A stretch of 64,000 nucleotides of DNA from Escherichia coli 042 (GTDB taxonomy: Bacteria; Pseudomonadota; Gammaproteobacteria; Enterobacterales; Enterobacteriaceae). Positions 22,276-28,085 of this stretch are shown here, one piece after another. Where the stretch lies: assembly GCF_000027125.1 (NCBI RefSeq), contig NC_017626.1. The stretch is one strand, 5' to 3'. Positions within the stretch are counted from its first letter, which is position 1. Every line of letters begins with the position of its first letter. The translations under genes were made by a program, and so were the position numbers. The notes under the pieces were generated by a model, which saw nothing but the letters and a program-made list of their open reading frames with translations, was not told the DNA's origin and made no database searches.

Positions 22276-23916
22276 ATGGCAATCCACAATCGTGCAGGCC
22301 AACCTGCACAACAGAGTGATTTGATTAACGTCGCCCAACTGACGGCGCAATATTATGTACTGAAACCAGAAGCAGGGAATGCGGAGCACGCGGTGAAATT
22401 CGGTACTTCCGGTCACCGTGGCAGTGCAGCGCGCCACAGCTTTAACGAGCCGCACATTCTGGCGATCGCTCAGGCAATTGCTGAAGAACGTGCGAAAAAC
22501 GGCATCACTGGCCCTTGCTATGTGGGTAAAGATACTCACGCCCTGTCCGAGCCTGCGTTCATTTCCGTTCTGGAAGTGCTGGCAGCGAACGGCGTTGATG
22601 TCATTGTGCAGGAAAACAATGGCTTCACTCCGACACCTGCCATTTCCAATGCCATTCTGGTTCACAATAAAAAAGGTGGCCCGCTGGCAGACGGTATCGT
22701 GATTACACCGTCCCATAACCCGCCGGAAGATGGTGGTATCAAGTACAATCCGCCAAATGGTGGCCCGGCTGATACTAACGTCACCAAAGTGGTGGAAGAC
22801 AGGGCCAACGCACTGATGGCCGATGGCCTGAAAGGCGTGAAGCGTATCTCCCTCGACGAAGCGATGGCATCCGGTCATGTGAAAGAGCAGGATCTGGTGC
22901 AGCCGTTTGTGGAAGGGCTGGCCGATATCGTTGATATGGCGGCGATTCAGAAAGCGGGCCTGACGCTGGGCGTTGATCCGCTGGGTGGTTCCGGTATCGA
23001 ATACTGGAAGCGCATTGGCGAGTATTACAACCTCAACCTGACCATCGTTAACGATCAGGTCGATCAAACCTTCCGCTTTATGCACCTCGATAAAGACGGT
23101 GCGATCCGTATGGACTGCTCCTCCGAGTGTGCGATGGCGGGCCTGCTGGCACTGCGTGATAAGTTCGATCTGGCGTTTGCTAACGACCCGGATTATGACC
23201 GTCACGGTATCGTCACTCCGGCAGGTTTGATGAATCCGAACCACTACCTGGCGGTGGCGATCAACTACCTGTTCCAGCATCGTCCGCAGTGGGGCAAAGA
23301 TGTTGCTGTCGGTAAAACGCTGGTTTCATCTGCGATGATCGACCGTGTGGTCAATGACTTGGGCCGTAAGCTGGTAGAAGTCCCGGTAGGCTTCAAATGG
23401 TTTGTTGATGGTCTGTTCGACGGCAGCTTCGGCTTTGGCGGCGAAGAGAGCGCAGGGGCTTCCTTCCTGCGTTTCGACGGCACGCCGTGGTCCACCGATA
23501 AAGATGGCATCATTATGTGTCTGTTGGCGGCGGAAATCACCGCGGTCACCGGTAAGAACCCGCAGGAACACTACAACGAACTGGCAAAACGCTTTGGTGC
23601 GCCGAGCTACAACCGTTTGCAGGCAGCCGCGACTTCCGCACAAAAAGCGGCGCTGTCTAAACTGTCTCCGGAAATGGTGAGCGCCAGCACCCTGGCAGGT
23701 GACCCGATCACCGCGCGCCTGACCGCTGCGCCTGGCAACGGTGCTTCTATCGGCGGTCTGAAAGTGATGACTGACAACGGCTGGTTCGCCGCGCGTCCGT
23801 CAGGCACGGAAGACGCCTATAAGATCTATTGTGAAAGCTTCCTCGGGGAAGAACATCGCAAGCAGATTGAGAAAGAAGCGGTTGAGATTGTTAGCGAAGT
23901 TCTGAAAAACGCGTAA
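22276..23916 (+). CDS. pgm: Phosphoglucomutase, 546 aa
   Basis: [16 protein letters not shown] start; phosphoserine loop TPSHNP visible. Confidence 0.96.
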
Positions 23917-23930
23917 ACACATTTAATAAG

Positions 23931-23961
23931 AAAAAGGGCGGTCGGAAGATCGCCCTTTTTT
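23931..23961 (+). terminator. pgm rho-independent terminator
   Basis: AAAAAGGGCG-gtcggaagat-CGCCCTTTTTT. Confidence 0.75.
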
Positions 23962-23971
23962 ACTTATGATT

Positions 23972-24070
23972 GCCTGATGCGCTACGCTTATCAGGCCTGC
24001 GAGGATGGTGCAATATATTGAATTTGCGCTATTTTGTAGGCCGGATAAGGCGTTCACGCCGCATCCGGCA
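23972..24070. repeat. REP/BIME cluster between pgm and ybfP
   Basis: GCCTGATGCGCTACGCTTATCAGGCCT ... TAGGCCGGATAAGGCGTTCACGCCGCATCCGGCA. Confidence 0.8.
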
Positions 24071-24120
24071 TGAACAACGAGCACTTTGCCAACAAACTGA
24101 ATAGCTCAAGGGAATTCAAA

Positions 24121-24615
24121 ATGAAGACCAAAAGGAGTCTGGTCGTCAGAGTGGCATTAATTACCGCCACACTACTGCTGACAGCATGCGCCCAACCTGA
24201 ACAATCATCATTAGCTGGTGACTGGTTACTGACCCCTAAAGATAAAACCAGAGGATTAACGGGTAGCATTGCGGTAAATATTGCGCCTTCCCGGTGTAAG
24301 ACAAATTGCCGTGGCGATAACTTACCTGATAATACCCGCCGCTGGCAGTTGTCAGGCGGGAACGAAAAAGAACTTACTTATCTTCACGATATGTCACCAC
24401 AAGAAAAGAGCAGTTTAAATCGTGGCTGGCAGTGCTACACCTCATTTTTTATGCGGGTTTGCCAGGGCAAGCCTGGCACTCGACCGATTGTTAAAGAGGA
24501 TTATGTCAGCGAAAGCGGATTTTTTGGCTCGATGATGCATGTCGGGATTATTGAGTTGCGACGCTGCCAGTCAGAAAAATGCCAGCAAGAGTTGAAACAG
24601 ATAAATACGCATTAA
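24121..24615 (+). CDS. ybfP: Lipoprotein YbfP, 164 aa
   Basis: MKTKRSLVVRVALITATLLLTAC lipobox; ORF track includes upstream extension. Confidence 0.85.
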   Translation: MKTKRSLVVRVALITATLLLTACAQPEQSSLAGDWLLTPKDKTRGLTGSIAVNIAPSRCKTNCRGDNLPDNTRRWQLSGGNEKELTYLHDMSPQEKSSLNRGWQCYTSFFMRVCQGKPGTRPIVKEDYVSESGFFGSMMHVGIIELRRCQSEKCQQELKQINTH

Positions 24616-24646
24616 ACATATCGCGATGAGTGCCATGCCTGATGCG

Positions 24647-24717
24647 ACGCTGACGCGTCTTATCATGCCTACGGGACGATGTGTAGGCCGGATAAGGCGT
24701 TCACGCCGCATCCGGCA
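24647..24717. repeat. REP/BIME pair between ybfP and kdpE
   Basis: GCCTGATGCGACGCTGACGCGTCTTATCATGCCTAC ... TAGGCCGGATAAGGCGTTCACGCCGCATCCGGCA. Confidence 0.8.
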
Positions 24718-24726
24718 ATTCAGACC

Positions 24727-25404
24727 CTAAAGCATAAACCGATACCCAATACCGGTTTCAGTAATGAAGTGGCGGGGGCGGGCGGGATCCTGTTCCAGTT
24801 TTTGTCGCAGATGTCCCATATAAATACGCAAATAATGACTGTGTTCGACCGCGTTTGGCCCCCACACCTGGTTAAGGAGCTGGCGCTGGGTGAGCACTTT
24901 CCCGGCGTTATTCAGCAGCACCGCCAGCAGGCGGAACTCAATCGGGGTGAGATGCACCTCTTCCTCACCTCGATGGATCACACGAGCTGCTAAATCGACG
25001 GTAACATCGGAAAATTTCACCAGCGGATCGGGCGCGGTGGTGGCGGAGTGGCGGCGTAAAGCGACGCGCAGGCGGGCCTGCAATTCGCCAATACCAAATG
25101 GCTTACTCAGGTAATCATCCGCTCCGGCATCCAGCGCGGCGATTTTGTCGCTCTCTTCGCTACGTGCGGAAAGCACAATCACCGGCACCGCGCTCCACTG
25201 GCGCAGGTCGCGGATAAACTCAATCCCATCACCATCGGGCAGGCCGAGATCGAGAATAATCAAATCTGGCTTACGGGTTGCCGCTTCCAGCAAGCCGCGT
25301 TGCAGCGTTTCGGCCTCATAGACGCGCATACCGTCGCCCTCCAGCGCCGTGCGCAGAAAGCGACGAATAGCCTGTTCATCTTCAACAATCAGAACGTTTG
25401 TCAC
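24727..25404 (-). CDS. kdpE: Response regulator KdpE, 225 aa
   Basis: [17 protein letters not shown] receiver domain plus winged-helix output. Confidence 0.95.
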   Translation of the reverse strand: MTNVLIVEDEQAIRRFLRTALEGDGMRVYEAETLQRGLLEAATRKPDLIILDLGLPDGDGIEFIRDLRQWSAVPVIVLSARSEESDKIAALDAGADDYLSKPFGIGELQARLRVALRRHSATTAPDPLVKFSDVTVDLAARVIHRGEEEVHLTPIEFRLLAVLLNNAGKVLTQRQLLNQVWGPNAVEHSHYLRIYMGHLRQKLEQDPARPRHFITETGIGYRFML

Positions 25405-28085
25405 ATATCCTCATGAAATTCTTCAAGTTCAGGGGCAGTTTGCTGGGGAAGTGTAACACGAAAACAGGCACCACCTTCCGGTCGGTTGAACGCGGTAATG
25501 GTGCCGCCGTGTACATCCACAATCGCCCGACAAATTGCCAGCCCAAGCCCTACCCCCGGCACCGCCGACTCTTTATTCCCGCGAGCAAACTTATCAAATA
25601 TCGTCTGCTCCTGGCCTGGCGGAAGACCGGGGCCATTATCCCAGACATCCAGTTGTAGATTTTCGCCCTCAACGTGGGCATCGATACCAATTTCGGCCTG
25701 CGCACCCGCGTATTTCACCGCGTTCTCCAGCAGATTAATCAGCACCCGTTCAAACAGTGGCCCGTCAACGTGGATTAAGGTCAGCGGTTCTGGCAGAGAA
25801 AGATTGATGGGCGACGGTAAACTCGGTTCCAGCATTTGCAGCGCGCTGCCGACCACTTCTTCCAGCGTTAACCACTCTTTCTTCAAATTAAAGCCGCCGG
25901 ACTGAATTCGCGCCATATCCAGTAGATTATTCACCAGTCGGGTCGTGTTCAGCACATGCTGACGAATCTCGCTGGCCTGGCGGGCGTGGGGCGATCCTTC
26001 GCTCGCCAGATCGAGCGTTAAGATTTCTGCCTGACCGAACAGCACCGTAAGCGGCGTGCGTAAATCATGCGAAAGCGCCGCCAGCAGGGCGTTGCGGATC
26101 TGTTCTCGTTCGCTTGCCATCCGCGCCTGTTCTTCGCTGGCGGTCAGTGTCAGCCGCTCAAGGGCATTGGCGACTAACAGCGTAAACGTCTCCAGCAGGC
26201 GTTGCTGTTCCGGGATCATCAACTGGCGCAGATTCCCCGGTTCCACCACCACCAGCCCGTAGGTTTTCTCACCGCTTTTTAGCGGCAAAATCTGGTACGG
26301 TACACCGGGTAACGTGTCGGTGCCCGCGCCCGCAGGCAGGCCTTTATCAAAACTCCACTGCGCGATGGCATCGTCCCACGGCGTCATTCCTTGCGGATGT
26401 GTTAACGGCTGCAATTTACCGTTGTCATCGGGCAACAACACCTGACTGCGGGCATGAAACGTGGAGGCAATAAATTGTTCGCTGGTGGTGGCGATGTCCT
26501 GCGGACTGCGGCCCACCGCCAGAGCTTTCGACATTTCATATAAGTGCCGTGTGCGTTGCTCGCGGTAACGGGCTACCCGCGCCTGATAACGCACGCCAGC
26601 AGTAAGGTTCCCGATCACCAGCCCGACGGTTAACATCACCGCGAAGGTCAGCAGATATTGCACATCAGAGACGGCGAGCGTGCCGCGTGGGGCGATAAAA
26701 AAGAGATCGAAACTCACCACATTAATGACGGTGGCAACCACCGAAGGCCAGCGTCCATAAAATAGCGCCACCACCACCACGCCAAGCAGATACAGCATCA
26801 CCAGGTTGGCGGCATCAAACGCCATCAGCCACTGCATGGCAATTAAGGTGATAACGGCGCATAACGCGGCGGCAACCACGCATCCCTGAATCTGTACCCG
26901 CCACTTGTCTTTAAAAGAGCGGCTATCCGGCGCGTTGTTTATCGTGCGGGCGGGTGGTTCATCAAGCGCGACCAGCACCTGATCGAGATCGGGGGCGATT
27001 CGCGCCAGTCGGTCAGCAAACGTTTCCCGACGCCACCAGCGGCGCGAGGCCGGGCGACCGAGAATAATCTTGCCGAGATTATGTTCACGGGCATAACGCA
27101 CTACCGCTTTCTCTTCCGCTGGATCAGAAAGTGTTGCCGTCTCCGCGCCCAGCTCCTGCGCCAGACGTAAGGCGCTGAGAATTGCCCGACGTTTTTTCTC
27201 CGGTAAGCGGTGCAGGGCAGGGGTTTCAACATACACAGCGTGCCAGACGCTACCCAGCCGTGACGCCAGCCGCGCCGCCGCGCGGACCAGTTTTTCGCTG
27301 CCGGTGTTATGGCCGATGCATAAAAGGATCGCGTCGCGCGTGTGCCAGACTTTCTCTTCGCCAGGATGCCCCCGCCAGGCGCGCATTTGCTCATCAACGC
27401 GATCGGCAGTACGGCGCAGTGCCAGTTCGCGCAGGGCGATCAGATTACCTTTACGAAAAAAATGTTCAATGGCGCGTTCCGCCTGCCCGGCAATATAGAC
27501 TTTACCTTCTTTCAGCCGTTGACGCAGATCGTCCGGGGGCAAGTCCACCAGCACCACGTCGTCGGCGGCATCGAAAAAAGGATCGGGCACGGTTTCCCGT
27601 ACCTGAATTCCGGTGACGCCGCTGACCACATCATTCAGACTTTCCAGATGCTGAACGTTGACGGTTGTGAAAACATCAATGCCAGCTTCCAGCAGCTCTT
27701 CGATGTCCTGCCAGCGTTTAGGATGACGAGAACCTGGCGCATTACTGTGCGCCAGTTCGTCCATTAAGATCAGCGCCGGACGGCGGGCGAGGGCGGCATC
27801 GAGATCAAACTCGCTGATATGCCGCCCACGGTACGCCTGGCGTTTGGGCGGTAGAACAGCCAGCCCTTCCAGCATTGCGGCGGTATCTTTCCGCCCGTGG
27901 GTTTCAACCACGCCAACCACAATATCCAGCCCTTGCGCCCGCAGTCGCTGGGCTTCTGCCAGCATCGCCCAGGTCTTTCCGACGCCCGCACAGGCACCGA
28001 AGAAAACTTTCAGCTTCCCCCGATGCGGCGCGGCAGTTTGTTCCAGCAGACGATCGGGGTCGGGACGTAAGGGTTCGTTATTCAT
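25401..28085 (-). CDS. kdpD: Sensor histidine kinase KdpD, 894 aa
   Basis: [16 protein letters not shown] start at ATG 28083-28085; Walker [10 protein letters not shown] in the N-terminal KdpD domain; 4-nt overlap with kdpE. Confidence 0.95.

Follow-up and report, generated by a model that had tools for sequence, protein, structure and literature searches.

SpeC is a constitutive ornithine decarboxylase, its paralogue SpeF is induced by low pH and ornithine, and PotE is a putrescine/ornithine antiporter. In a pangenome study, speF was among the metabolic genes that are most often pseudogenes (PMC13322260). REP elements are imperfect palindromes with GTAG/CTAC ends that are arranged in inverted pairs outside genes, occur in many copies and differ from strain to strain at the same locus; BIMEs are classed as BIME-1, with a long linker, or BIME-2, with a short one (PMC3333891). 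REP and BIME sequences have been reported to terminate or attenuate transcription, to stabilise mRNA and to be bound by IHF, gyrase and Pol I (PMC3333891).

In the window, by which we mean the whole 64,000-nucleotide stretch of Escherichia coli 042 (NC_017626.1) that was analysed, the gene order is fldA, ybfE, ybfF, seqA, pgm and ybfP, met convergently by kdpE, kdpD, kdpC and kdpB. The original prediction was that ybfP ends at 24615 and kdpE at 24727 with a REP pair alone between them, and that this pair marks the empty site of a segment that K-12 carries in the order ybfP, ybfG/ybfH, potE, speF, kdpE. We verified these coordinates on the sequence: the ybfP stop codon occupies 24613-24615 and the TAG stop of kdpE (minus strand) 24727-24729, and the 111 nt between them (24616-24726) hold a y-type REP (24637-24672) after a 21-nt spacer and, beyond a 9-nt linker, an oppositely oriented z-type REP (24682-24717), which a 9-nt spacer separates from kdpE. 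The order given for K-12 was likewise found in the K-12-type record BM28, and the two REPs do form the junction at which K-12 carries 5,150 bp. No canonical intrinsic terminator was detected between ybfP and kdpE by a terminator scan, and no coding match to SpeF, PotE or YbfG was obtained anywhere in the 64-kb window. The features from pgm to kdpD are as follows (form 0 is a shorter form of the locus described below):

22276-23916, plus strand: pgm (phosphoglucomutase), the left conserved flank; 99.6% to K-12 Pgm by tblastn, and annotated in an identical genome.
23930-23961, no strand assigned: intrinsic terminator hairpin of pgm, from the terminator scan and intergenic comparison.
23972-24000, plus strand: REP1, a short y-type REP seen in the sequence and shared by the form-0 genomes L007, L008 and L089.
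24001-24034, no strand assigned: long linker between REP1 and REP2, resembling the L linker of BIME-1, AATATATTGAATTT; class from the description in PMC3333891.
24035-24070, plus strand: REP2, a z-type REP upstream of ybfP, 36 nt identical to 24682-24717.
24071-24120, plus strand: ybfP leader, from intergenic comparison.
24121-24615, plus strand: ybfP, encoding a predicted lipoprotein of 164 aa; annotated CDS in an identical genome.
24637-24672, plus strand: REP3, a y-type REP and first arm of the ybfP-kdpE BIME, from the sequence.
24673-24681, no strand assigned: 9-nt short linker of this BIME, from the sequence.
24682-24717, plus strand: REP2', a z-type REP and second arm of the ybfP-kdpE BIME; ortholog of the only REP2 of form 0, which lies next to kdpE.
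24718-24726, no strand assigned: 9-nt spacer ATTCAGACC from REP2' to the kdpE stop; its form-0 counterpart in E. whittamii is the 10-nt ATTCAGCCCC.
24727-25404, minus strand: kdpE (response regulator), the conserved flank on the right, ending in TAG; from annotation in an identical genome and comparison.
25401-28085, minus strand: kdpD (sensor kinase); from annotation in an identical genome and comparison.

Both elements at the junction are true members of the REP family and show every testable defining feature; the membership criteria were taken from PMC3333891, and the assignment of the copies to the y, z1 and z2 types is tentative. Both are palindromic, the element at 24637-24672 ending in CTAC and that at 24682-24717 having GTAG one base in (TGTAGG). 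They lie as inverted arms 9 nt apart, outside genes, with the stop codon of ybfP on one side and that of the convergent kdpE on the other, and on either strand the pair folds as one long hairpin (-48.9 and -51.2 kcal/mol, z about -3.8). With up to 3 mismatches allowed, the 30-nt core of the kdpE-side REP occurred in 6 copies in the window and the core of the ybfP-side REP in 4, as against 0 in shuffles of the window for both; the kdpE-side core is also identical at two unrelated places in the window. Across the complete E. coli collection, a REP-containing query matched a median of at least 38 places per genome. The window REPs thus share palindromic structure, GTAG/CTAC ends, inverted pairing, extragenic location and multiple copies with the described E. 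coli REP/BIME sequences and do not differ from them in kind. With regard to the BIME classes, REP2 and REP2' are identical, yet one belongs to a long-linker and the other to a short-linker BIME. Further clusters of y- and z-type REP/BIME sequences were seen in the window at 8271-8300, 16620-16649, 52460-52584 and 56861-56986; in two of them the 30-nt core of the kdpE-side REP recurs unchanged.

Inspection of individual loci revealed four forms of the pgm-kdpE interval in E. coli, whose shares were obtained by subtraction of feature counts among 5,426 complete genomes. Form S (about 59%; examples are O157:H7, E2348/69 and E. albertii) has the order pgm, terminator, potE, speF, speFL and kdpE, with a pgm-potE gap of 56 bp, and form K (about 34%) has ybfP, ybfG, a kdpE relic, potE, speF and speFL. 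Form W, that of the window (4.6%), consists of pgm, terminator, BIME, ybfP, BIME and kdpE, and in form 0 (about 2%; ETEC4069) pgm and kdpE are 163 bp apart with only the terminator and one BIME between them. The speF-potE/speFL operon, which fills the pgm-kdpE slot in other strains, is wholly missing from the window locus. The contiguous ybfP-kdpE junction was found in 249 of the 5,426 genomes, and the pgm and kdpD flanks were near each other in 369. ybfP was present in 2,112 genomes, always as a single copy, and ybfG in 1,855; the difference of 257 is near the count for form W. The carriers of the junction include one titled O15:H18 strain ST69, a sequence type that belongs to phylogroup D, and form W also occurs on the diverged backgrounds L090 and L092, giving at least three diverged backgrounds in all. 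In the literature on speF/potE with phylogroup and on ybfP we found no description of the four-form polymorphism or of the kdpE relic of K-12. As a gene-content polymorphism, the lack of speF-potE is ordinary and of a known kind, and it calls for no new mechanism.

Variation was also seen in the operon and its right border. speF falls into two deeply diverged allele classes, about 1,950 genomes having a match of at least 95% to K-12 speF and about 3,095 one of 90-95%. The spacer between speFL and kdpE exists in two non-alignable versions (L005 6850-7125 as against L006 6797-7031), one of which has an extra small annotated ORF. We attempted to count speF-kdpE adjacency with a query composed of the speF 5' end, speFL and kdpE, and abandoned this count since, with two such spacer versions, the coverage classes failed to separate the forms. 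The window, L090 and the form-0 genomes have TAG as the kdpE stop codon, against TGA in forms K and S and in the W genome L092.

The K-12 arrangement is itself a composite, and it is a minority form. In BM28 (L001), the 5,150 bp between the ybfP and kdpE stop codons contain ybfG, a DUF2625 pseudogene broken by an internal stop, then a partial winged-helix pseudogene, and potE, speF and speFL. Window and K-12 are 97.6% identical up to the ybfP stop and 97.5% identical from the kdpE stop on, and the homology breaks within 1-2 nt of both stop codons. The sole part of the K-12 segment with a match in the window is the 142-bp pseudogene, a relic of the kdpE 3' end with 89% identity to the real kdpE. 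This relic follows ybfG and is itself followed by a 43-nt copy of the REP2 tail and ybfP leader (81%), then by a second, diverged pgm terminator and then by potE (relic, leader copy and terminator together at L001 9395-9612). The pgm terminator is thus duplicated in the K-12 type, whereas in the S type a single one is common to pgm and potE, and the S-type intergenic sequence resembles a fusion of the left half of the first K-12 terminator with the right flank of the second. This arrangement implies that ybfG at one time directly adjoined a kdpE gene, in a lost ancestor with the order ybfP, ybfG, kdpE. No such form was found: in all 30 sampled rows with ybfG, from the 1,855 genomes that carry it, the relic is adjacent. 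Form K and the window have the flanks in common, as well as the BIME and leader that precede ybfP, and their ybfP genes are orthologous (93.9% nucleotide identity); K-12 differs in having no REP pair after ybfP, in a kdpE that ends in TGA, and in the 5,150 extra bp with the ybfG pseudogene, the relic, the partial leader copy, the second terminator, potE, speF and speFL. It should be underlined that, for the pgm-kdpE interval, K-12 is no neutral reference, being a minority composite with a kdpE relic, and that most E. coli are without ybfP.

Forms without speF-potE are not confined to E. coli. We scanned one genome per species, giving 80 kdpE loci that were typed by tblastn, and found neither ybfP nor ybfG in any of them. 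Among distant Enterobacterales such adjacency is the rule: pgm directly adjoins kdpE in Pantoea, Serratia, Dickeya, Pectobacterium, Buttiauxella and Mangrovibacter, and in some Serratia and in Yersinia the two genes are 1-2.4 kb apart with no speF-potE between them. Within the Enterobacteriaceae, speF-potE lies between pgm and kdpE in many species and is absent from this position in others, even within Citrobacter and Enterobacter, several members of which have pgm directly beside kdpE. Form 0 was found in E. whittamii (Sa2BVA5) and in a genome deposited as E. coli SCPM-O-B-8794, both 5-7% diverged from the window, with the order terminator, REP1, long linker, REP2, 10 nt and kdpE with a TAG stop.

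The form-0 loci of ETEC4069, E. whittamii Sa2BVA5 and SCPM-O-B-8794 are like form W in having no speF-potE, in the order REP1, long linker, REP2 and in having REP2 followed by a short spacer and TAG; they are unlike it in having none of a 647-bp stretch that comprises the ybfP leader, ybfP, REP3 and the second REP2. For L007 and L008, alignment with the window breaks off at 24070 and is taken up again at 24682, with an overlap of exactly the 36 nt of REP2, from which it follows that form W equals form 0 plus leader, ybfP, REP3, linker and second REP2; the 647 bp are made up of 611 bp with ybfP and a second copy of the 36-nt REP. On the kdpE side, the junction reads GGCA ATTCAGACC CTA in form W and GGCA ATTCAGCCCC CTA in E. 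whittamii, whereas forms K and S have AT-rich DNA from upstream of speFL and a TGA stop at this position. In addition, an 11-bp deletion in the spacer between terminator and REP1 is common to form W and the E. coli form-0 genome ETEC4069, and is not found in K-12 or in the other Escherichia species. As judged from these alignments, the kdpE-side junction and the 11-bp deletion tie form W to the speF-less forms and not to K-12.

The gene that sets form W apart from form 0, ybfP, encodes a predicted lipoprotein with the lipobox LLTAC and has no Pfam family. It is present in 39% of the complete E. coli genomes, and no homologue was found outside E. coli, either by protein search or among the 80 kdpE loci of other species, where a donor arrangement was sought; ybfP is an orphan gene restricted to E. 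coli. The only distant protein match, of 65% identity, proved to be a frameshifted, partly divergent allele in an ordinary W-type E. coli (L092 8001-8474). In the genomes examined, the ybfP leader adjoins ybfP only, save for the 43-nt copy downstream of the K-12 kdpE relic. The 647-bp stretch holds ybfP, its leader and REPs, and has neither mobility genes nor the terminal inverted repeats that would mark a transposable element. A direct repeat of 36 nt, without a mismatch, flanks ybfP, with empty sites in L007, L008 and L089, and this repeat is the REP whose core recurs at two unrelated places in the window; because the 30-nt core is identical elsewhere, the repeat alone cannot tell an insertion of ybfP from a deletion that gave form 0. 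A deletion between both 36-nt copies would yield the same picture as an insertion.

Taken with the distribution of the forms, these comparisons suggest that form W, a naturally segregating form without speF-potE, is probably an old alternative haplotype and not the product of a recent deletion from a K-12-like chromosome. The haplotype would have been kept or reshuffled by recombination. The last 400 bp of kdpE (24729-25129) differ by 3-7.5% among E. coli as against 1-3% in kdpD, a diversity two to three times higher, which fits long-standing haplotypes, and diversity is also raised at the 3' end of pgm (23300-23913). In neither the kdpE nor the pgm flank did the four forms separate into clades, and the distance matrices give no ancestral form. 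This indicates that the pgm-kdpE region is, by its sequence, a recombination mosaic, and for that reason the flank distances point neither to an ancestral form nor to a direction of change.

The main alternative to an old haplotype is a recent, REP-associated deletion in which ybfG, the kdpE relic, potE, speF and speFL were lost at once from an ancestor of K-12 type, the REP pair being the scar. The ending of K-12 homology almost exactly at the two stop codons would fit such an event, and intergenic polymorphism and recombination are known to arise at BIMEs (PMC3333891). Forms W and K moreover share the left junction of REP2, leader and ybfP, which implies some common history. Against a recent deletion, K-type sequence is missing on both sides of the REP pair. 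The kdpE-side REP, spacer and TAG match form 0 of E. coli, of E. whittamii and of the SCPM-O-B-8794 lineage, from which K and S differ; REP3 is found in neither K-type nor form-0 loci; and the 11-bp deletion joins form W to E. coli form 0, not to K-12. The W and K-type alleles of ybfP are also 4.4-6.1% different, and form W occurs on at least three diverged backgrounds. We therefore regard a recent deletion as unlikely. A variant in which the segment was lost from a K-like form that then recombined with a form-0 right flank is in our view improbable to the same degree.

A more far-reaching version of the old-haplotype reading is that the pgm-kdpE interval may carry a trans-species polymorphism maintained by selection, in which haplotypes with and without speF-potE predate the split of E. 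coli from its sister Escherichia lineages, the REP/BIME sequences act as joints for swapping the cassettes ybfP, ybfG and speF-potE, and the K-12 form is a fossil of such a swap; we put this forward as a speculation with rather little chance of being correct in full.

A further alternative is that speF-potE has moved to another chromosomal or plasmid site, with the inducible system retained. speF was full-length in 5,042 of the 5,426 complete E. coli genomes, and in 380 the best match was of only 60-80% by sensitive blastn; in the rows sampled, this match was speC, at 70-71%. We queried the genomes with a composite sequence in which the locus flanks, with the REPs left out, were joined to reverse-complemented potE-speF; carriers of the junction ranked first for it. 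About half of the W genomes gave a second place for this query, as a relocated operon would, but the second place was gone once the potE-speF part was dropped from the query. Among the genomes that are 100% identical to the window, C4, HYM1, ECA64 and CB6837 (identical over 4.2 kb) gave one place only, while 2021CK-01784 (identical at the locus) gave two with the composite and one with the flank-only query.

The extra place in 2021CK-01784 is best explained, by inference from its sequence, by speC. The speC allele of this genome (NZ_CP104371.1; L088 33888-36023) has a 29-nt exact word in common with K-12 speF and a megablast match to speF of 72% over 1,690 bp, and so yields just such a second place, whereas K-12 speC gives no megablast match to speF and their longest common word is 18 nt. 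Four sampled genomes with an intact speC as best speF match (70-71%, blastn) likewise had that one place only; in a fifth such row, H320, two places were matched, and the gene there bears no more than the annotation 'ornithine decarboxylase'. Plasmid-borne speF accounted for only 1 to 3 places in the whole collection. Since the second place was lost without potE-speF in the query and speC explains it, translocation is very unlikely, and a translocated or foreign speF in the W genomes was rejected on the strength of the flank-only query and the speC allele with the 29-nt word. About 354 genomes (from 273 extra places and 81 weak best matches) would behave like 2021CK-01784, on the assumption that all of these matches are speC. 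Such speC alleles with the 29-nt speF word are a trap for calls of speF presence or absence.

Finally, although repeated REPs flank the junction, loss of the segment from the assembly by collapse of these repeats is negligibly probable, as the junction occurs in 249 independent complete genomes and 36-nt REPs are too short to collapse 5 kb of unique sequence.

The original prediction had further held that the strain lacks the inducible ornithine decarboxylase system, and this was borne out in that no SpeF or PotE was found in the window, nor, beyond speC, in the identical complete genomes. Compared with carriers of speF-potE, the closest complete genome has the constitutive paralogue speC only; speA, speB and speC are all present in 2021CK-01784. 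Judged from gene content, cells with form W would make putrescine via constitutive SpeC and via SpeA/SpeB only, and would be without the SpeF induced by low pH and ornithine and without the PotE antiporter. About 7% of the complete E. coli genomes, among them strains of the clinically important lineage ST69, are without this SpeF/PotE system and its induction by acid and ornithine. Their lack of it may matter for ornithine decarboxylase tests, for acid-stress physiology and for metabolic models based on K-12.

With regard to the REP pair itself, its hairpin would lie at the 3' end of both the ybfP and the kdpFABCDE transcript, which converge; there, by analogy with REP/BIME sequences elsewhere, it most likely blocks 3' exonucleases for both and attenuates transcription. 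REPs close to stop codons have reportedly lowered the synthesis of the encoded protein, and the REP at 9 nt from the stop codon of kdpE might, as a lead only, lower the synthesis of KdpE.

IS1397 is an insertion sequence reported to target REPs. It is absent from the BIME of the window, and in some K-type genomes it lies between pgm and ybfP, at the BIME (L004 5355-6703; L091 5580-6928). It was also seen between pgm and kdpE in some W genomes, namely MEW and O158:H23 CFIAFB20140388.
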